Under the pieces are notes generated by a model. That model saw only the letters and a program-made list of their open reading frames with translations, searched no databases and had not been told where the DNA came from. Of a stretch of 64,000 bases of DNA, positions 7,714-39,481 are shown in pieces. Numbering within the stretch: the first letter of the stretch is position 1; every line of letters starts with the position of its first letter. The position numbers and the translations under genes were made by a program. The stretch covers positions 108,591 through 172,590 of the forward strand of contig JAZKFU010000008.1 in the NCBI GenBank assembly GCA_040386275.1, given 5' to 3'. This DNA is from Patescibacteria group bacterium (lineage in GTDB: Bacteria > Patescibacteriota > Minisyncoccia > Phycocordibacterales > UBA918).

Positions 7714-7714
7714 G

Positions 7715-7801
7715 CGGAGAGAGGGGGATTCGAACCCCCGATCGGGTTGCCCCGATGCTACCTTTCCAAGGTAGTACAATCAACCGCTCTGCCACCTCTC
7801 C
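7715..7801 (-). tRNA. tRNA-Ser (anticodon GGA)
   Basis: Reverse complement GGAGAGGTGGCAGAGCGGTTGAT...CTACCTTGGAAAGGTAG...GGGGGTTCGAATCCCCCTCTCTCCG folds as a cloverleaf with a 7 bp acceptor stem, anticodon loop UUGGAAA, long variable arm and GTTCGAATC T-loop; no encoded CCA. Confidence 0.85.
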
Positions 7802-16590: not shown

Positions 16591-16702
16591 CTTAAAACCA
16601 GCAAAATCGTGATAGGATAGTGCGGTTACAAGGTATCAGCTTGTATTTATAACTTAAGACAATTGGCTTATTATATCCACTCTAATCCTCGCTGCGCTCT
16701 CA

Positions 16703-17119
16703 GTGTCAACCGCTTATGCAGTCCCACAGAGTGCCGCGTATGGAAAGATTGTGACTGACTCGAGTAAAGTAGTAACGGCTGAAACGAAAGCAAAACCGGT
16801 ATTGGTAAATACTGAAGCAATTGTTCGAAACTACTTCAAAGATATTCCAGTCATGATCCAGGTGGCTCGTTGTGAATCGACTTTTCAGCATACCCTTGCT
16901 GACGGATCGGTTCTCCGCGGTAAGGTAGACAGTGCGGATACGGGTGTTATGCAAATTAACAAACGGTATCACGCGGCTACTGCAGCTGCTCTCGGGCTAG
17001 ACCTTCATGATATTTACGACAACATGGCCTATGCCCGACATCTCTATGAGAAGCAGGGAACACAGCCTTGGAATGCGTCGGCTCCTTGTTGGGCACAGAC
17101 GCTAGCCGTAAACATCTAG
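16703..17119 (+). CDS. lytic transglycosylase-like (SLT-domain) protein; GTG start in track, in-frame signal-peptide-like extension upstream lacks a canonical start
   Basis: ARCESTFQH...GVMQIN resembles the SLT catalytic Glu/Ser and GLMQI motifs. Confidence 0.55.
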   Translation: MSTAYAVPQSAAYGKIVTDSSKVVTAETKAKPVLVNTEAIVRNYFKDIPVMIQVARCESTFQHTLADGSVLRGKVDSADTGVMQINKRYHAATAAALGLDLHDIYDNMAYARHLYEKQGTQPWNASAPCWAQTLAVNI

Positions 17120-17258
17120 TAGTTATTCCAAAAATTCCTACCTACTGCGTTGCCTGCGTCGAGAATTCATTCACCGTACAAAAAGTACGGCTCACGAATT
17201 CTCTCCTGGTCGCCTTGTATCTAGAAATTTTAGAAACAACTATATCTCCACGAAACTC

Positions 17259-17288
17259 AAAAAGAACCCCGTACGGGGTTCTTTTTGT
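17259..17288. terminator. bidirectional terminator
   Basis: AAAAAGAACCCC-GTAC-GGGGTTCTTTTT perfect hairpin with flanking A/T runs. Confidence 0.6.
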
Positions 17289-17310
17289 ATCTGCTATACT
17301 GAGGGTTATT

Positions 17311-17775
17311 ATGGCAAAGACACCTAATTACTGGATTATGAAGAGTGAGCCTGATGAGTTTAGTATTGATGATTTGCAGAAAAAGAACGTGTCCATTTGG
17401 GATGGGATTCGTAACTATCAGGTACGGAATATGATTCGGGATGGTATGAATGTTGGGGACCGGGCGTTCTTTTATCATTCGAGCACTAAAGATATCGGCA
17501 TAGTGGGGGAGATGGAGGTGGTAGAGCGTGCCTATCCCGACCCGTCACAGTTTAAGGCTAGCAGTAAGTATTTTGATAAGGGTTCTAAACCTGATAATCC
17601 ACGCTGGCTGTCATTTGATGTGCAGTTTGTAGCAAAGTTTCCTCGACTGCTTTCTCTCGCAGAATTAAAACTAAATCCAAAATTTGAAACCCTGCCTCTC
17701 GTCAGGAAAGGGAATAGACTCTCCATCATGCCGATTACCAAAGCTCACTATGAAGCTATTAAAAAAGCGATATAA
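17311..17775 (+). CDS. EVE domain (PUA-like) protein
   Basis: MAKTPNYWIMKSEPDEFSIDDL...WDGIRNYQVRNMIRDGMNVGDRAFFYHS is a typical EVE-domain N-terminus; start chosen at the internal ATG after the terminator. Confidence 0.65.
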   Translation: MAKTPNYWIMKSEPDEFSIDDLQKKNVSIWDGIRNYQVRNMIRDGMNVGDRAFFYHSSTKDIGIVGEMEVVERAYPDPSQFKASSKYFDKGSKPDNPRWLSFDVQFVAKFPRLLSLAELKLNPKFETLPLVRKGNRLSIMPITKAHYEAIKKAI

Positions 17776-17781
17776 ATTATT

Positions 17782-18069
17782 ATGGCAAAAGTAAATCGAG
17801 CCGCTGAAGTTAAAAAGTTTACCGATATCCCTAACGTAGGGAAGGCGATGGAGCGAGATTTTCTATTTCTGGGTGTAACATCACCAGTGCAATTAAAGAA
17901 GCTCGATGCCTACACTCTCTACCAAAAAATGTGCAAAAAGAGTGGAACCCGCCAAGACCCCTGTGTGCTAGATACCTACCTAGCTGTCATCGACTTTATG
18001 AACGGGGGCCCCGCTAAACCATGGTTTTACTACACAAAAGATAGAAAGAAACGTTTTCCTAATGTATAA
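17782..18069 (+). CDS. Cdd1-like helix-hairpin-helix (pathogenicity-locus family) small protein
   Basis: IPNVGKAMERDFLFLGV...QDPCVLDTYLAVIDFMNGGPAKPWFYYT resembles PF11731-like HhH proteins (recalled from memory, not searched). Confidence 0.45.
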   Translation: MAKVNRAAEVKKFTDIPNVGKAMERDFLFLGVTSPVQLKKLDAYTLYQKMCKKSGTRQDPCVLDTYLAVIDFMNGGPAKPWFYYTKDRKKRFPNV

Positions 18070-18137
18070 CTTTTACATAATACTAATTAAAAACATATAT
18101 TATTGACTGTTTGTGATAAAATTTACCTAGATCAGAA

Positions 18138-18728
18138 ATGGAGGATCAAATGGTACTGGCTCTCGTGATAGCACTCACTCTGGGGGCTGGACTCATTTCA
18201 GCTTCTTTCTTTGAATGGGCTGTGCATAAATACTTGCTGCACCGTCCAATATCGTACTTTAAAATTTGGTTTGAAGGTCACACGAGAATTCATCATATGA
18301 AATTTAAGTTTGATCATCGATATCACCTGCAACATGATGATGATAAGGAAATCATTGACATGAAGCGGTGGGCGCTTGTGCTGATTGGATTTGGTTCACT
18401 CCCGTATTTTGTGGTTATGGCTTTATTCGATTTTCCGCATGAGTGGGTAATGGTACTTACGGGTACGCTTTTATCAACATTGTATTATATAGCGTATGAG
18501 TATTTGCACTGGTGTATGCACCTTCCTAAAGAGCGTCGTTTAGAAAAGTCATGGCTGTTTCGGCGCTTAAACGGTCATCATCTGTTGCATCATCGCTTTA
18601 TGGGTAAAAACTACAATGTCGTGTTTCCATTTGCCGATTGGTGTATGGGCACATTGATGGCGCGATCAACGGTTCACTTCAAGCAACCAAAAGGGCCGTT
18701 CATAGCTGATGTGCAACCGCTCTCATGA
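18138..18728 (+). CDS. fatty acid hydroxylase superfamily membrane protein (His-box di-iron enzyme)
   Basis: His boxes HKYLLH, HTRIHHMKFKFDHRYH, HWCMH and GHHLLHHRF embedded in TM helices. Confidence 0.55.
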   Translation: MEDQMVLALVIALTLGAGLISASFFEWAVHKYLLHRPISYFKIWFEGHTRIHHMKFKFDHRYHLQHDDDKEIIDMKRWALVLIGFGSLPYFVVMALFDFPHEWVMVLTGTLLSTLYYIAYEYLHWCMHLPKERRLEKSWLFRRLNGHHLLHHRFMGKNYNVVFPFADWCMGTLMARSTVHFKQPKGPFIADVQPLS

Positions 18729-18749
18729 TGCTGCGATGAGAAGAAACAA

Positions 18750-18790
18750 ATATATCTGGGCCTGCACATGGGCCCAGATATTTCTATTTT
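18750..18790. terminator. bidirectional terminator
   Basis: ATATCTGGGCC-TGCACAT-GGGCCCAGATAT perfect 11-12 bp hairpin with flanking A/T runs. Confidence 0.55.
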
Positions 18791-18836
18791 AAAAATAAAT
18801 CATTTGATGGTATAGAACCAGGTGATTTTTTATAGC

Positions 18837-19211
18837 TTACTGGTAGCTTTTTATTAAAGCGTATTTATTTTTATGCGCGATACCTAGATAGAGGAAGGCA
18901 GGTAGTATTGCCCACAACATGCCCGGGAATCCACTATAAGCACTGTAAAGAACAAGACCCACTAATGAGAGTCCAGCTAACAGTAGAGCAGTGCATTTAC
19001 TATGTGCTTGAGCTGGTTTGTAGAATAGTGCAACAATTAAAATTACTGCCAAAAGAATTTGGGTAATGCCTAAGCCAAGCCAAAAGGGTGAGGGTAGGGT
19101 AGAGAAGGCCTGCGAAGTCGCTAGTACATCATAATTTCCCATCATATACAGAGCGCCTGTTATGGTATACAAGGCAATTAAAACTTGAGATATGTTTAAA
19201 GCTATTTTCAT
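18837..19211 (-). CDS. hypothetical small membrane protein (DoxX-like?)
   Basis: 124 aa, 4 TM helices. Confidence 0.35.
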   Translation of the reverse strand: MKIALNISQVLIALYTITGALYMMGNYDVLATSQAFSTLPSPFWLGLGITQILLAVILIVALFYKPAQAHSKCTALLLAGLSLVGLVLYSAYSGFPGMLWAILPAFLYLGIAHKNKYALIKSYQ

Positions 19212-19254
19212 AAATACTATTACATTGATTATATAAGAGTAGTATACATCATCC

Positions 19255-20214
19255 TTATTTCTTTAAGGGATGGAACTCTTTGTGTGTCGTTTCAGCGTAT
19301 CTATCACTTGCATGCACGTAGCGGGAAGTGGTTTCTAGGGACTCGTGACCTAATAGTACTTGAATAGCGGCGGGGTTGGCACCTTGTTCGGCTAGGTAGG
19401 TGGCAAATCCGTGACGAAGAGAGTGAGCACTGGTAGGAATACTGATACCGAGCATTTCTCGGTACCATTTGATTTTCATTTGCAGGTAATTAGCCGAGAT
19501 ATGTTTTTTAATGTCCTTGGCGTTAAGACCTCGGCGAGCGACAAAGATATACGGGCAATCATCATCACGCATTTTTAAGTAGGCACGGATATAACCCTCC
19601 GCTCGAGCGGTGAGGTAGATAAAACGTTGTTTACGCCCTTTACCTAATATGTATATTTTGCCCGTGTGATCAAGTTGGCTAATTTTGAGACTAATGAGTT
19701 CAGAGATACGCATACCGCTCGCAAATAACGTTTCAAGTAATGCTCGGTTCCGAGCCGCTACAAACTCGTCTTTCTCTAGGGTGGTGGGGCACTCGATTAG
19801 TTTAATCAGTTCGTTAAGCTCGAGTAACTGACCAGACGGTTTTTGCATCCGGAGAAGTTTAATGGCGGTAGGGGCAATAGGGGTAGGCTCATCCATGTCC
19901 ATCAGGAACCCCAGGTACCGCCGTAGGGAAGTGAGGTGCCGATTAATTGATCCACTTTTTAATTTTATTTCTGACTCAGCTCCAGCTGATGTCTTGCGGG
20001 TGGGGGAGTTGAGGTACGCTTTATACTGCTCGATAGTTTTTTTGGTTACTTTACTAAATTCAATACTACGCATTTCTTCTTTTAGAAAATTGGCAAAGGT
20101 ATCCAAGTCACGTTCGTAATTGTACAAAGTTTCCGGGGAATAATTATTCGCCTGAATGTGAAGTAGGAAGTCATCAATAAGAGGGAGGGTATTCATAATT
20201 GTATTTGTAGACAT
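19255..20214 (-). CDS. tyrosine site-specific recombinase / integrase (XerC/XerD family)
   Basis: C-terminal catalytic region RHGFATYLAEQGANPAAIQVLLGHESLETTSRYVH (R-H-R-Y box II motif); N-terminal SAM-like domain. Confidence 0.8.
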   Translation of the reverse strand: MSTNTIMNTLPLIDDFLLHIQANNYSPETLYNYERDLDTFANFLKEEMRSIEFSKVTKKTIEQYKAYLNSPTRKTSAGAESEIKLKSGSINRHLTSLRRYLGFLMDMDEPTPIAPTAIKLLRMQKPSGQLLELNELIKLIECPTTLEKDEFVAARNRALLETLFASGMRISELISLKISQLDHTGKIYILGKGRKQRFIYLTARAEGYIRAYLKMRDDDCPYIFVARRGLNAKDIKKHISANYLQMKIKWYREMLGISIPTSAHSLRHGFATYLAEQGANPAAIQVLLGHESLETTSRYVHASDRYAETTHKEFHPLKK

Positions 20215-20920
20215 ATTGTACCAAATGGGGTAACCCTATTAGGTTATTAATAACTGAGTATAATAACTCTAATACTCAGTATTATATATAAAATAAGGGT
20301 ATTCTGCACCTATACTATCCCCAGGCTTAAAACCCTGACTTCCCTATAGGGTAATAAAATTTCAAATTATAATGGGTAATTAATTATTGAGTTTTTACTG
20401 TAGTTATTTTCCCGTTCGTTTTCAGCTCATTTTGTCTCTTTTTACTTTTTCTATCTAAACTCATATTTTGTCTTTGGTGTAAATTATGCATTCGTATCCC
20501 AATATTCATTTTTTACTTAAATACGTAAATTTCTCAATTTGAGACTTTTTTGGTACTGGTACCTAAGTACCTCTTTTTAGCTCCTAGACCCTATTCTCTG
20601 AAGCTCAAAATTCGATTCTAAGCCTCATGCATGTTTTGAGACGACATCTACATTATGTGAAAATATTCACGAGTAAAGGTACCTGATACAAAGTATCAAA
20701 AAATGTTCTGTGCCAGCCGAGTATGTGAATGGAGTGATACGAAGTCGAGTGTTTTTAAACTTATTGCTGCTAATGACTAATTGTATGTAGACAGTACAGT
20801 ATCAGTTACAAAAATATTTTTTAAAAAATACTAGGGAAGTCACGTGTCTTAAAAGATCATTCACTCTTCCCTGTTTGTGTAAAAAATTTCGAGCCCACAA
20901 ATATAGGCGGGCTCGTAAAA

Positions 20921-21226
20921 TTATATTACAAACGTAGCTGTAGGCTGAAGCTGTTGTGGGCGCAAATCATCATCAAATTTATCAAAATTTTCAGTATAAA
21001 AAAATTTTGATAAAACATGTACCGATGATGCGCCGACTAGTGACCAGCCAGCTTTGGCTTCTTCTGTGGTTAAAAATGACTCATGAAATTCTTCAACAGC
21101 GTCGGCTAAGGTTTTCTCTGAATGTTGTTTCCTACTAAGTACACGCTTGGTATACATTTTAAATTCATGAACTCCTCGTGCCTCGTCAACAAGGTTTTGA
21201 ATTTGAGTAATGATATAAACAGCCAT
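20921..21226 (-). CDS. hypothetical protein
   Basis: 101 aa ORF with hairpin CGAGCCC...GGGCTCG downstream. Confidence 0.35.
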   Translation of the reverse strand: MAVYIITQIQNLVDEARGVHEFKMYTKRVLSRKQHSEKTLADAVEEFHESFLTTEEAKAGWSLVGASSVHVLSKFFYTENFDKFDDDLRPQQLQPTATFVI

Positions 21227-21298
21227 TGTGACCTCCCCGCTTAGGTAGAACCTATTTTATCTGGTTCATATACTATTCCTTTGTAGAGTGATGTCAAA

Positions 21299-21631
21299 TT
21301 ACGTAATAGGTTTAAAACTAAACTGTAAAATCTTTACAATTGAATCTGGATTTACAATATCTCCATAGTATCCTCGATACGCAGCGTACATTTTTTGTTC
21401 AGATGTATACCGTTCGTGCCCCATCCAATCCTTTTCTTCTAGAGTGCCTAAGGTTTTGATGTATAAATTAGTTATCTCCCCTGTTCCTATAGTTTCCAAC
21501 GTTTCTTTATTTATAAAAGTGATTGCATCCCCCACTGTTAAATCTTTATCATCAAATAATCTCCAGGTAGAAGTTTTTGTACCCGCAAGAATTTGTGCAG
21601 ATAATTCTGGAGTGAATTTTAGGGTCTTCAT
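21299..21631 (-). CDS. ASCH domain (PUA-like) protein
   Basis: MKTLKFTPELSAQILAGTKTSTWRLFDDKDLTVGD resembles the ASCH N-terminus; start taken at the internal Met. Confidence 0.5.
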   Translation of the reverse strand: MKTLKFTPELSAQILAGTKTSTWRLFDDKDLTVGDAITFINKETLETIGTGEITNLYIKTLGTLEEKDWMGHERYTSEQKMYAAYRGYYGDIVNPDSIVKILQFSFKPIT

Positions 21632-21635
21632 ACAG

Positions 21636-21986
21636 TTAATTTGCAAAAATGCTTACAATGCTAATTACTAAAGCAAATATAGAAATTACAAATGCTTGCT
21701 TTGAATTTTGTCGCGCTTCTTTTAGTTCATCATACTCGAGTAGTCGTGATCTGCCTTCAAAACTTAACATGAACCTCATACCTCTACCGTCACCGCTTCC
21801 TCCTACATATGTAAAAAATGGACCATTTGTACTAACTTCAGTTCCGATAAATACTTGTTGTTCATAATTAAGTTTTAAGTTTTGAATCAAATCAGCATGC
21901 GTGAAATTAGGATTATCCAGAGCATACCTTAAAATTTTTACATGAATATCTTCTTCAGTTTCAGTAAAGTATTTTGACAATAACAT
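21636..21986 (-). CDS. hypothetical protein with C-terminal TM helix
   Basis: 116 aa; C-terminal AFVISIFALVISIVSIF. Confidence 0.35.
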   Translation of the reverse strand: MLLSKYFTETEEDIHVKILRYALDNPNFTHADLIQNLKLNYEQQVFIGTEVSTNGPFFTYVGGSGDGRGMRFMLSFEGRSRLLEYDELKEARQNSKQAFVISIFALVISIVSIFAN

Positions 21987-21990
21987 ATTT

Positions 21991-35966: not shown

Positions 35967-37643
35967 TTAACTTATTAATGGTAGAGAAAGAACAAAACTT
36001 GACCCCTTCCCGTCACCGTCTGATTTACACGTAATATCCCCTCCCATAGTGCGTGCCATTTCGCGCGCTACAAACAGTCCTAAGCCGGTGCCATTGATGT
36101 TGACGCTATTGGCATTTTTCGCTCGCGAGAATTTTTGGAACAAATTCTTAACTGTTTCTTGGTCCATTCCAATACCGGTATCAATTACTTCGACATAGAG
36201 CTTCCGTGCAATGTGGTTCTCGTGTACATAGACAGTAATGGTCCCCTTTTGTGTGTATTTCAAAGTGTTATTAATTAGGTTATGGAGTATCTGTTGGGTC
36301 TTAGAAATATCAGCCCGGACAATCCCTTTGCTCGCTATATTAGATTTAAAGAGTAATAGTAACCCAGAGCGAGTGGCTTCAGGACGCAAGTCGTCTACGA
36401 TATGTTCTGCCTGTTCACAGAGATTAAATTCACTGTAGGTGTACTTCATATTGCCCGATTCAATCCGCGAGACATTAAGGAAGTCTTCAATCGAAAAAGC
36501 CATTAATTTAGCAGACTCATGAATGCGTCCCAGGACCTCAGTCATTTCATCTGGTGCTTTTCCGTAGTTACCATCAAGAATCATAGAGGTGTACCCCCGA
36601 ATAGCGGTTAGAGGACTACGCAACTGGTGTGAAGCAATTGAAACAAACTCCGACTTTTGTTTATCAACCACCCGGAGTCGTTCATTGGTTGATTCAAGGT
36701 TGCTCGCCAGCATTTCAATTTCTTCTCGTTGCGACACTTCACTCCGTACACTCTTTATGAGTAATGTACCCAAGATAGAAAAGAAGAGTATGGTCGCCAC
36801 CGCGATAATTTGAGCATTTTCAATTGAACGTACAAATAACAAAGATACCAACAATATAAGTTGTCCCGCCATCAAGGCCTCAGTTGCAAGGAGCTTAACT
36901 TTGAATGTTTCGTACCGAACCAGGATATACCCTAAAAATGCTACAAATATCGGCATCCCGAACAATCCAATCTGACCTGACTTCCAGTCACCGAGGAAGC
37001 TCCCGATAATATTACCAATAGAGAATGAGAGTAAGAATAAGAGGATGCCGGTAGAGACTAAAATGGTCTCTCGTTGGTTGTGTTTCTTTCGATACAGCTG
37101 TTTTATCGTTAACAGCAAAATTAACCCTACAAAGAGAAATTCAAACCCGTAGACGTAATACTGCCACAGTGGTCCTTCACTCGCGTAGCGTAGACAATTT
37201 GTGTAATCAAACCCAATGAGGTTCAAGGTAGTATGTCCAAATAAGATGAGGGGCAGGAACATCGTGAAGATAGCCAACTCGATTTTAAATGACGGGAATT
37301 TTTGATTGTAAAAGGCATAGATAAAATAAAATGCTCCCACGTACATTAATAGCTCAAAGTACATTAATGTCGACCAGACAAACATAATAATATCTGAGCG
37401 AGGCGAAGCCCAGGTAATTAAATCTAGGAAACACCAAATGGCGAACATGGAGGTCGTGAATAAAAGTGCTTGAGCAGCTTTGTTGCGCCAATTAGTGCGT
37501 AGTACAAAAATGGCAATAATTAACCCCGACAAAGACGGTAAAAAATGACCATAATATTGAAAACTTCCCTCTAGATTCTCAGAGAAGATTAAAAAATTAG
37601 CCACTTTCCAGGCACACATTGTAGGATCAACGATGTTCAACAT
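35967..37643 (-). CDS. sensor histidine kinase with N-terminal 7-8 TM sensor domain
   Basis: HisKA H-box SHQLRSPLTAIRGY and HATPase_c N, G1, G2 boxes (NLINNTLKYT, DTGIGM, GTGLGL). Confidence 0.75.
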   Translation of the reverse strand: MLNIVDPTMCAWKVANFLIFSENLEGSFQYYGHFLPSLSGLIIAIFVLRTNWRNKAAQALLFTTSMFAIWCFLDLITWASPRSDIIMFVWSTLMYFELLMYVGAFYFIYAFYNQKFPSFKIELAIFTMFLPLILFGHTTLNLIGFDYTNCLRYASEGPLWQYYVYGFEFLFVGLILLLTIKQLYRKKHNQRETILVSTGILLFLLSFSIGNIIGSFLGDWKSGQIGLFGMPIFVAFLGYILVRYETFKVKLLATEALMAGQLILLVSLLFVRSIENAQIIAVATILFFSILGTLLIKSVRSEVSQREEIEMLASNLESTNERLRVVDKQKSEFVSIASHQLRSPLTAIRGYTSMILDGNYGKAPDEMTEVLGRIHESAKLMAFSIEDFLNVSRIESGNMKYTYSEFNLCEQAEHIVDDLRPEATRSGLLLLFKSNIASKGIVRADISKTQQILHNLINNTLKYTQKGTITVYVHENHIARKLYVEVIDTGIGMDQETVKNLFQKFSRAKNANSVNINGTGLGLFVAREMARTMGGDITCKSDGDGKGSSFVLSLPLIS

Positions 37644-37650
37644 ACTTTAC

Positions 37651-37800
37651 TTACTGTGGCCGGTCTTCAGGACCATTAGGGCTAGTAATCACTTGATAGT
37701 CTTTTTTCACTATATTAACGTAATACATCAAACTGATAGAAAATAAAATGCAGATCGCTAATATAATGCGAACGATGGTAGCTTTAGTGGTGTCTTTCAT
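37651..37800 (-). CDS. hypothetical 49-aa single-TM peptide between the two kinase genes
   Basis: ATG 4 nt after the upstream kinase stop; MKDTTKATIVRIILAICILFSISLMYY hydrophobic helix; weak support. Confidence 0.3.
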   Translation of the reverse strand: MKDTTKATIVRIILAICILFSISLMYYVNIVKKDYQVITSPNGPEDRPQ

Positions 37801-37804
37801 GTTT

Positions 37805-39481
37805 CTAAACCAGTGGGAATGAAATCGTAAATGTTGAGCCTTTGCCTTCTCCTTCTGATTGAACGGTAATATCACCTCCCATTGCGCGAGCCATTTCTCG
37901 GGCTACAAATAATCCTAAACCGGTACCCATAATATTCGCAGAGCTAGCAATTTTAGCGCGGGCAAATTTACCGAATAGTTTTTGCATGCTCTCACTACTC
38001 AATCCGACTCCCGTATCAATAATGTCCACGTATATTTTTTTACTTTTTACATCATCGTGGGCATAGACTGTAACACTTCCTTTCGGCGTATACTTCAAGG
38101 CGTTGTTGATAAGGTTATGGAATATTTGCTGTGTCTTTCCTGCGTCCGCTCGGACGAGTCCAGTTCCCTGCATATCAGAGCGATAGAGCAACATTAATCC
38201 CCGTTTTACCGCATCTGCGCGTAAATCATCTACCACATGTTCAGCTTGATCCTTAAGATTCACGTCCATGTACTCGTACTTCATATTCCCTGATTCAATG
38301 CGAGATACATCCAAGAAATCATTAATTGACGTAGCCATGAATTTAGACGATTCATTTACACGTTCCAATATTTCTTGTGCCTTTTCCGGTAATTGACCAA
38401 AACTCCCCTCCGCCATCATCGATACATACCCGCGGATAGCAGTGAGTGGGCTGCGTAACTGGTGCGAAGCAATCGATACAAACTCGGACTTCTGTTTATC
38501 CAAAATCTGCAACCGCTCGTTAGCTCGTTCTAGACCATAGGCCAACTTCTCAATCTCCTCTCGCTGTTTGATTTCTCTGTAGACAGAACGAATAAGGAGG
38601 TATCCTAAAATAATAAATAATATAAATGCCGCAGCTGTAATAATTCTAAACGAATTCGTGTCGTCTACAAAAAGAAGTGAAGCAATTAACGAGCCAATAA
38701 ACATCACAAGCGCTACCGTACTAAAGAGTCGTATATTAAAGGTTTTATACTTAACAATACTGTATACAAAGAAGCTAATAAATACCGGCATTGTAAAAAG
38801 ACCAATCTGGGCAAAACGCCAGTCCTCATTGAAACTACTTATAATGTTTCCAAGTGAGAACATTAGCAAAAGACTTGTGATGCCTAGAGTTAGTATAGTA
38901 ATTTCACCACGTCGTTTTGGTAAGCGAATTGCACTTCGAATCGCGAAAATCACAATCCATACGAGAATTATCCCTTCTATTCCGTAAGTATAATATGTAG
39001 CCATCGGCCCCTCCAAACTAAGACATATCGACTCATCAAATGCGTAAAGCATCAAGCTAGTTGGCACAAAGAGGACAACTGGTAAATATAAAATTCCAAG
39101 AATTATTTTTTCAATAAATCTATTATCCTTTCCATTAATGAGTGTCTGCATTAAGTACAATGCACTAATATAAATTATAGGTTCAAACAATATTTGCATT
39201 GACCACACAAACATGATCACGTCCCCTCTATTACTTGCCCAAAATACAGAGTCAAGTAAAACCCAAATAGTGAAACTTAAAGTTAACGAAAAAAGTGCTC
39301 GATTTGGTAGGCCGTTTACATTTTTAAAAAGTACGAAAATTCCAAGCAGTAATGCAATGAGAGATATAGGTAGATGAGAATAATAAACTAGTGACGGAAC
39401 ATTTTCTGAAAAAATCAAATAGGTCGGGCCAGAGAAATCACATAAGCCTGGATTTGAAATAGATGCCGGAATTGAGTCCAT
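37805..39481 (-). CDS. sensor histidine kinase, paralog of the adjacent kinase
   Basis: Same architecture: SHQLRSPLTAIRGY H-box and HATPase_c boxes; collinear similarity to the 35967-37643 product. Confidence 0.75.
   Translation of the reverse strand: MDSIPASISNPGLCDFSGPTYLIFSENVPSLVYYSHLPISLIALLLGIFVLFKNVNGLPNRALFSLTLSFTIWVLLDSVFWASNRGDVIMFVWSMQILFEPIIYISALYLMQTLINGKDNRFIEKIILGILYLPVVLFVPTSLMLYAFDESICLSLEGPMATYYTYGIEGIILVWIVIFAIRSAIRLPKRRGEITILTLGITSLLLMFSLGNIISSFNEDWRFAQIGLFTMPVFISFFVYSIVKYKTFNIRLFSTVALVMFIGSLIASLLFVDDTNSFRIITAAAFILFIILGYLLIRSVYREIKQREEIEKLAYGLERANERLQILDKQKSEFVSIASHQLRSPLTAIRGYVSMMAEGSFGQLPEKAQEILERVNESSKFMATSINDFLDVSRIESGNMKYEYMDVNLKDQAEHVVDDLRADAVKRGLMLLYRSDMQGTGLVRADAGKTQQIFHNLINNALKYTPKGSVTVYAHDDVKSKKIYVDIIDTGVGLSSESMQKLFGKFARAKIASSANIMGTGLGLFVAREMARAMGGDITVQSEGEGKGSTFTISFPLV

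Follow-up and report, generated by a model that had tools for sequence, protein, structure and literature searches.

Does a tyrosine recombinase gene beside a few small, low-GC genes betray a mobile element, or can it belong to the chromosome itself? The question is raised by a stretch of 64,000 nucleotides (hereafter, the window) of contig JAZKFU010000008.1, from the assembly GCA_040386275.1 of a Patescibacteria group bacterium. At window positions 16598–21990, a gene for a Xer-family recombinase (xer) lies between small genes and a long spacer. An earlier reading made from the letters alone (the sequence-only reading) took this region for a possible integrated element whose attachment (att) sites could not be identified. 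I propose another answer. With good confidence, the region is the replication terminus of a Kaiserbacteria/Paceibacteria-like chromosome, in which xer and a dif-like site form a module for resolving chromosome dimers, flanked by a plasticity zone.

It was found that the spacer upstream of xer contains a 28-bp site with the layout of a dif site (Table 1). Two 11-bp arms (20270–20280 and 20253–20263) are inverted repeats that match at 10 of 11 positions, and they enclose an asymmetric 6-bp centre (20264–20269). The small palindrome that the sequence-only reading had noticed in the spacer, AACTGAGTAT/ATACTCAGT, is part of this site; it is real and meaningful. The site ends 38 bp before the ATG of xer. 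It is unique in the 64 kb even when three mismatches are allowed, with a chance expectation of 0. Across 760 kb of related loci, the best candidate for a second copy has 8 mismatches out of 28, which is the background level.

Is this site conserved in other genomes? Loci of relatives were chosen by Xer protein similarity alone, in a scan that kept one genome per species. The 28-mer is exact in 12 species-level genomes and has one or two mismatches in 5 more. A set of metagenome contigs was also collected by exact match to the 28-mer; in this exact-match scan, 70 contigs carry the site, each in a single copy. In 65 of the 70, an orthologue of Xer (52–88% identical) begins at most about 200 bp downstream on the same strand, while four of the other five are truncated by the end of the contig, and the fifth is rearranged. 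Overall, the identical 28-mer stands alongside Xer proteins that are only 52–93% identical. The alignment columns are invariant at the site, and the neighbouring aligned DNA is about 55% identical, which is background.

In distant lineages, whose Xer proteins are 58–62% identical, a recognisable variant of the site was found in the opposite orientation relative to xer. The inverted variant reads nnTGAGTATAA-TnnCyC-TAAyrCTCAnn (loci L022, L023, L025, L026, L027, L030, and L032). Its arm core TGAGTATAA is invariant, and the other arm varies at two positions. Half-sites resembling the right arm were also seen in several loci, about 55 bp upstream from the complete site: L012 (position 9848, ATACTCAGTTACT), L031, L043, L087, L099, and L102. 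They may be relics of earlier Xer-mediated events, or chance matches.

What kind of recombinase adjoins the site? The xer product matches the Pfam families Phage_integrase (1.5e-31) and SAM_1, and the sequence-only reading was right to call it a tyrosine recombinase of the Xer family. The catalytic residues R-K-HxxR-H-Y are intact and were aligned with those of Escherichia coli XerD in a PDB alignment. The protein aligns end to end with the NCBIfam models of XerC, XerD, and XerA. In the protein database, 4077 Xer relatives were found at E<=1e-20. Orthologous xer loci (54–93% identity) were found in 31 genomes, one per species, of Kaiserbacteria, Paceibacteria, and other Patescibacteria metagenome-assembled genomes (MAGs). 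When the neighbours in the window were used as tblastn queries, a recurrent gene order was revealed: FtsW-MurG-GluRS-M23, a variable gap, xer, a second variable gap, and then (Cdd1)-EVE-SLT-like. This fixed slot between M23 and EVE/SLT is occupied by xer in about 30 species-level genomes (Xer orthologues 60–93%) and in the 65 metagenome contigs, about 100 loci in total. Thus, xer remains constant while the surrounding genes change; an integrase that moves together with its cargo would show the reverse. Judged by these comparisons, the recombinase is a vertically inherited, resident chromosomal Xer. In L039 and L049 (and L044), the M23-GluRS-MurG-FtsW block is inverted and lies on the xer side of the site, as expected from inversions symmetric about the terminus.

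Does the site mark a replication terminus? In the window, the GC skew is positive in each 2-kb bin up to 20 kb (+0.03 to +0.12) and is then about zero or negative, and the cumulative GC skew has its maximum at 20.0–20.5 kb. Ten loci have 6 kb or more on each flank, and in every one of them the coding strands converge on the site. The strongest evidence comes from polar motifs. A set of 80 loci (645 kb), which left out the window and its species-mates, served to derive them, and they were then tested in the window. In the 80 loci, G-rich oligomers point at the site, with toward:away counts of 194:14 for AGGGAAG, 140:7 for TGGGGGA, 82:1 for GTGGGGGA, and 52:0 for GGGGAAGT. The polarity persists within genes that are transcribed away from the site (367:24), and it is thus not a coding-strand effect. 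In the window, 41 of the 42 copies of RGGGRAG point to the site. The best split falls at 20100–20300, an interval that contains the site; the last plus-strand copy lies at 20002, antisense within xer, and the first minus-strand copy at 20339. The single wrong-way copy belongs to a hairpin (AGGGAAG...CTTCCCT) at 20833–20872. The E. coli consensus GGGNAGGG of the FtsK-orienting polar sequences (KOPS), which was chosen a priori, is distributed 4:0 and 0:4 about the site. Such sequences around dif are known to behave likewise (PMC3384302, PMC5357621).

How might such a module work? By analogy with XerS/difSL, XerH/difH, and XerCD/dif, two recombinase molecules would bind the two near-identical 11-bp arms. 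An odd number of crossovers between sister chromosomes would produce a dimer. A translocase of the FtsK type, guided by the G-rich polar motifs as they converge on dif, would bring the two dif copies of the dimer together at the septum. Monomers would then be restored by strand exchange over the 6-bp centre, in an order dictated by the one-base asymmetry of the arms and by the asymmetric centre. The promoter/leader region of xer and a conserved multi-hairpin element would make up the AT-rich spacer. The anatomy of the site, its uniqueness, its extreme conservation, its linkage to xer, its place at the polarity switch, and the variability of the flanks are shown by the sequences; recombination activity, the use of a single recombinase, and dependence on FtsK are inferred.

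Which of the known systems does it resemble most? A dif site adjoining its xer gene is a hallmark of the single-recombinase systems XerS and XerH and has been read as the sign of a transferable module (PMC5357621, PMC1914069, PMC9765430). In the XerS/difSL system of streptococci and lactococci (PMC1914069), as in the window, the site lies directly upstream of the recombinase gene to form one terminus module, the flanking genes vary, and the site may lie in the xer promoter/leader. However, difSL is 31 bp long with unequal arms and an 11-bp centre, whereas the site in the window is nearly symmetric. XerS also has 356 residues, against 319 here, and the window Xer reaches 99 bits where the XerS cutoff is 267. 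The XerH/difH system of Helicobacter and Campylobacter (PMC5241119, PMC3325230) shares the near-perfect dyad arms with a small asymmetry, the closeness of dif to xer, and, plausibly, the single-recombinase logic. The asymmetry of the difH arms is known to order strand exchange (PMC5241119, PMC3325230). It is a 1-bp insertion in difH but a substitution at arm position 10 here; moreover, XerH shows the weakest similarity among the solved Xer proteins (48 bits), and the site sequences are unrelated.

The XerCD/dif system of E. coli and Bacillus subtilis (PMC3025954, PMC5357621) has the same 28-bp, 11-6-11 site with inner arm ends TA(T/A)A / TTAT. It also shares a location where the GC skew shifts, and the polar motifs of the window resemble KOPS and the SRS motif. 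The best hidden Markov model matches of the window Xer are XerC and XerD, although the scores are about half of the equivalog cutoffs. Classical xerC and xerD lie far from dif and from each other, whereas a single linked gene adjoins the site here and the arms are near-identical. The XerL/dif system of Legionellales (PMC9765430) is likewise specific to a lineage and was recognised by the same criteria. The site in the window agrees with each criterion used for the Legionella dif: about 30 bp in length, low GC, palindromic, near the terminus, non-coding, and with variable flanks (PMC9765430). In contrast, xerL of L. pneumophila is more than 400 kb from dif, and its site was revealed by LME-1, an IMEX (integrative mobile element that exploits Xer recombination); no such element was found here. 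Archaeal XerA/dif (PMC2958812) is a single-recombinase system with a xerA-dif module in some species, and the XerA model matches the window protein over its full length at 162 bits. This score is below the cutoff of 220, however; the host of the window is a bacterium, and the archaeal dif is often not opposite the origin.

In the literature searched, no paper ties Patescibacteria, the candidate phyla radiation (CPR), Parcubacteria, or Saccharibacteria to dif or dimer resolution, and a survey from 2011, which covered 641 organisms of 16 phyla, is older than these genomes. Within this literature, the site, its cognate Xer, and the candidate FtsK-guiding motif are the first found for Patescibacteria, a very large radiation for which metagenomes are almost the sole source of knowledge. 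As a marker of the terminus, the 28-mer may be useful for checking MAG assemblies, for orienting replichores, and for interpreting coverage-based estimates of replication rate.

Is this cassette, called type 1 hereafter, the only occupant of the slot? L006, a MAG of the window's species (about 96% nucleotide identity across 16 kb), differs from the window from the middle of the spacer (about 20509) to about nucleotide 420 of xer, and the type-1 site is gone. In its place are a second xer gene (x2; 324 residues, 28% identical to the window Xer), a gene for a 183-residue protein, and a divergent 5′ third of xer. At L006:10001–10400, the N-terminal domain of the type-1 Xer is an outlier (72–76% identical to all others), while the C-terminal domain is 100% identical to that of the window; the recombination breakpoint lies near nucleotide 420 of the gene.

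It was revealed that x2 represents an equally abundant and conserved Patescibacteria family. In 9 of 9 independent contexts sampled, x2 lies at the MraY-FtsW-MurG-GluRS-M23 ... EVE locus and never elsewhere. It occurs alone, with the gene for the 183-residue protein, or in tandem with a type-1 xer that is well conserved. Each x2 is preceded by an invariant 24-mer, TTCGTTTTACATATATTGTGCGAA. The type-2 site can be read as TTCGTTTTA-CATATA-TTGTGCGAA in the 11-6-11 layout; its arms are unequal, and one of them recalls the classical XerC arm. Neither the window nor any type-1 locus contains the 24-mer, and the type-2 loci lack the type-1 site. The polarity of RGGGRAG in the x2 loci flips at or just upstream of x2. 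The sequence TTATACCCAGT upstream of the type-2 site had been likened to the right arm of the type-1 site (dif1), but this was dropped; it is absent in L119, L120, and L122. The gene for the 183-residue protein (L006:9434–9985, L106:8984–9535, and L113:6002–6553) always follows x2, both in the tandem loci and where x2 is accompanied by this gene only. Its product has no Pfam, PADLOC, or PHROG match and could be an accessory factor of x2.

How are the two types distributed? Judged by the adjacent M23 protein, they are interspersed among close relatives: the nearest to the window are L006 (99%, tandem), L106 (91%, type 2), L021 (89%, type 1), and L002 (86%, type 1). Most simply, these data may be read as two alternative xer-dif cassettes that are swapped at the terminus. 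I give about an even chance to the following fuller proposal. In this branch of Patescibacteria, the terminus slot would hold one of two interchangeable xer-dif cassettes, unrelated in sequence, whose replacement by horizontal exchange would have been caught in intermediate states. Type 1 would represent a new Xer family that works as a single recombinase and has a KOPS-like guide motif of its own. Such replacement has until now only been inferred as an ancient event, for XerS and XerH. Two alternative cassettes at one locus, even within a species, would, if true, allow the replacement of an essential site-specific recombination system to be studied in nature.

Table 1. Features of the proposed terminus region, given as window positions except where a locus is named.
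Feature	Position	Strand	Basis or remark
dif-like site, 28 bp	20253–20280	minus (xer-sense)	ACTGAGTATTA-GAGTTA-TTATACTCAGT; sequence, conservation
Promoter-like block TTATTTTnnATATAAT	20281–20296	-	lies just 5′ of the site; moderate conservation (60–80%) across 70 loci
xer (type 1), 319-aa tyrosine recombinase of the Xer family	19255–20214	-	Pfam, NCBIfam, PDB alignment, synteny
RGGGRAG polar motifs	1–64000	plus, 18 copies left of the site; minus, 23 copies right	motif scan
x2 loci	L006:8400–10942; L106:7950–9535; L113:4968–7510; L107, L109–L112, L118–L123		
Conserved non-coding block 2	20500–20725	-	nhmmer, identity, folding
Intrinsic terminator, then hairpin, at the 3′ end of the 101-aa gene	20890–20915; 20833–20872	-	terminator scan
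101-aa protein gene	20921–21226	-	no Pfam, PADLOC, or PHROG family
SLT-like	16703–17119	+	SLT_3 17.9 bits, below the cutoff of 27 (Pfam); core syntenic
EVE	17311–17775	+	Pfam 8e-53; core syntenic
Cdd1	17782–18069	+	Pfam 6e-29; core syntenic
Fatty-acid hydroxylase-like	18138–18728	+	FA_hydroxylase 5e-8 (Pfam); variable
124-aa membrane protein	18837–19211	-	variable
ASCH protein	21299–21646	-	Pfam 5e-5, above the gathering score; variable cargo
116-aa protein	21636–21986	-	no Pfam family; variable cargo

Several observations weigh against a terminus module with one recombinase and one site. The window Xer misses all of the curated NCBIfam cutoffs (XerC, 184 against 335; XerD, 179 against 330; XerA, 162 against 220; XerS, 99 against 267), and by these scores it falls outside all of the named equivalogs. 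No FtsK gene lies within the 64-kb window. The GC skew is clearly negative on one side and merely about zero on the other. The uniqueness of the site and its position 180 degrees from the origin were judged locally, in the 64-kb window and in individual loci. The palindrome overlaps the likely promoter/leader of xer and could also act as an operator. Finally, in the tandem loci (L006 and L113–L117), a well-conserved type-1 xer lies downstream of x2 with no dif1 nearby, so the one-recombinase, one-site picture may be incomplete.

The last point leads to a rival explanation. Like XerC with XerD, the window Xer may form a heterotetramer with an x2 whose gene lies at another place in the genome. 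The existence of a second, equally conserved Xer family in the same radiation would fit this arrangement, as would the tandem loci, where the type-1 xer is still well conserved. However, the arms of the site match at 10 of 11 positions, and such near-identity is expected if one protein binds both. Furthermore, x2 was found at this terminus locus in all of the contexts sampled, always with its own, different site, while neither the 64-kb window nor any of about 100 type-1 loci contains an x2. Partnership with a distant x2 is thus unlikely.

How did the genes around the module come to vary? In 48 loci, the interval from M23 to the site ranges from 75 to 6228 bp, and its GC content is below that of the flank in 45 of them. 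These intervals contain 106 open reading frames (ORFs), with 54 singletons and 23 small clusters. Their Pfam content is a mixture of G6PD/6PGD/6PGL, OMP decarboxylase, DNA methylase, VanY, LexA, GDSL lipase, LD-carboxypeptidase, HhH-GPD, HAD, GNAT, and endonuclease VII; no integrase, transposase, or phage gene was found among the 106 ORFs with Pfam. In the window itself, the low GC extends beyond the spacer to 21990. The ASCH gene and the gene for the 116-residue protein are sporadic among the other loci, and L006 has them replaced, from stop codon to stop codon, by genes for an S9 peptidase and a HAD hydrolase, while it keeps the gene for the 101-residue protein and half of the spacer. The breakpoints between the window and L006 thus lie exactly at gene ends, and inside xer. 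The low-GC stretch with the ASCH gene and the gene for the 116-residue protein is most likely strain-variable cargo of the terminus plasticity zone. On the other side of xer, the genes for the fatty-acid hydroxylase and the 124-residue protein are found only in the window, L006, and L115, and the other relatives have neither between xer and Cdd1/EVE. Lineages appear to exchange the flanking cargo through homologous recombination, for which the conserved neighbours provide the anchors; the cargo does not appear to be carried by the recombinase.

Could the cargo instead have been captured at the site itself? As in CTX-phi, LME-1, and the pdif modules of Acinetobacter, circular DNA with a mimic of dif may have inserted at dif, in the manner of an IMEX, after which the distal site decayed. 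In almost every locus, variable cargo does adjoin the site on one side, and the right-arm-like half-site about 55 bp upstream in several loci (L012, L031, L087, and L099) could be such a decayed end. But none of about 100 loci has two recognisable sites, and the swap in L006 has its breakpoints at gene boundaries and inside xer rather than at the site. The side of xer away from the site is variable too, and the cargo consists of ordinary metabolic, housekeeping-type genes. Capture at dif is therefore decidedly unlikely, and exchange by homologous recombination around a resident module is preferred.

Is the palindrome a recombination site at all? A promoter-like block directly precedes it, and the -10 element TATAAT (20281–20286) abuts the site. 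If this block serves as the promoter, as its sequence suggests, the site would fall in the 5′ leader of xer. The palindrome might then be chiefly an operator for autoregulation of xer, and its palindromic form is typical of operators, as is its place 38 bp from the start codon, right after a conserved TATAAT. However, 28 of 28 identity beside proteins as little as 52% identical is far beyond the usual conservation of an operator, and the 11-6-11 layout is that of dif. Both the polar motifs and the gene orientation flip exactly at the site, and the site is inverted relative to xer in the distant lineages. An operator in place of a dif site is thus very improbable. The two roles are not exclusive, since a promoter/leader position was proposed for difSL as well (PMC1914069).

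The idea that a tyrosine recombinase brought in a mobile element or genomic island, with ASCH and the other small genes as cargo and with unrecognised att sites, draws on the markedly lower GC of 20215–21990, on gene content beside the recombinase that differs between relatives, even within the species, and on the matches of the ASCH protein to two phage families of unknown function, but it is largely refuted and scarcely credible, because the recombinase sits at the same locus in every relative whatever the cargo, no flanking direct repeat, adjacent tRNA gene, or second site (in 760 kb) was found, and neither mobile-element genes in the cargo ORFs nor viral-contig matches to the site nor PADLOC matches were obtained. 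Between 16 and 23.5 kb, the search for att-type direct or inverted repeats gave only short chance matches. The sole tRNA gene of the window lies at 7714–7801, 12 kb away, and tRNA and Rfam searches of the window and the spacer yielded nothing else. Viral contigs gave no match to either the type-1 or the type-2 site. PADLOC gave no match for nine window proteins, including the small proteins, EVE, and Cdd1, and the PHROG matches were to a generic integrase family and families of unknown function only. The sequence-only reading had held that its island would be refuted by a chromosomal Xer without att repeats in a gene order free of size polymorphism. A chromosomal Xer without att repeats is what was found, although size polymorphism does exist. 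A pattern of an integrase with low-GC small genes can be a chromosome terminus instead of a mobile element.

As described in the sequence-only reading, the spacer (706 bp, 20215–20920) is AT-rich, with a GC content of 32–34% against 42–46% in the flanks, and contains no ORF longer than 41 codons. Besides the dif-like site, it contains a conserved non-coding block of about 225 bp (block 2). With nhmmer, block 2 was matched in 13 loci, which include both cassette types, and in each of them it lies upstream of the site. It is 83.7% identical to that of L106, while the adjoining genes are 74–79% identical. Five short hairpins were found in it, including CTTAGAAT-CGA-ATTTTGAG and GGTAC-N4-GTACC. 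In comparison with shuffled sequences, the fold has a z-score of -2.79 on the minus strand and -1.61 on the plus strand. The pairing is kept in 82% of the alignment cells, against 35–44% when the partners are slid, and compensatory changes are few. The invariant U-G wobbles work on the minus strand alone. Rfam gave no match in the spacer, block 2 included. These data lend weak support to a structured RNA, and block 2 is possibly a minus-strand small RNA or a part of the xer leader. A 23-residue ORF in block 2 was also considered, but an invariant run of 20 nucleotides without wobble variation indicates that the block is not coding. The several GGTACC palindromes that had been pointed out are present but were overstated: the spacer has two exact copies (20558 and 20678), whereas the whole window has 27, a number that no shuffle reached, against 9.7 expected from shuffles. 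GGTACC was therefore rejected as a feature of the spacer.

The gene next to the spacer encodes a protein of 101 residues and ends in a predicted terminator. The protein is 99% identical in L006, and genes for 102 and 103 residues at the equal position in L113 and L002 are related to it by pairwise BLASTP (E values of 5e-10 and 1e-5). With such diverged positional homologues, the gene is a fast-evolving resident of the locus and not mobile cargo.

As for the neighbouring genes, the sequence-only reading had correctly seen three small genes with one ASCH domain (the 101- and 116-residue proteins have no family), and it named EVE, Cdd1, and a fatty-acid hydroxylase in agreement with Pfam; its lysozyme-like SLT gene stays below the threshold. 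The order and orientation of the EVE and SLT-like genes are kept in most related loci of both xer types. The proposed pairing of EVE with ASCH did not hold up: EVE belongs, with the SLT-like gene and Cdd1, to the core syntenic genes of the left replichore arm, across the site from ASCH, whereas ASCH is sporadic, 3.5 kb away, and on the opposite strand. The suggested mobile or defence context for the pair fell with the negative PADLOC and cargo searches given above. At 17258–17287, in the gap that separates the SLT-like gene from EVE, lies a perfect palindrome (15+15), CAAAAAGAACCCCGT/ACGGGGTTCTTTTTG, which is probably a bidirectional terminator. Farther away, at 35967–39481, two tandem paralogous histidine kinase genes, both encoding 558 residues, lie beside a low-GC run (38–44 kb, GC 0.35–0.39).

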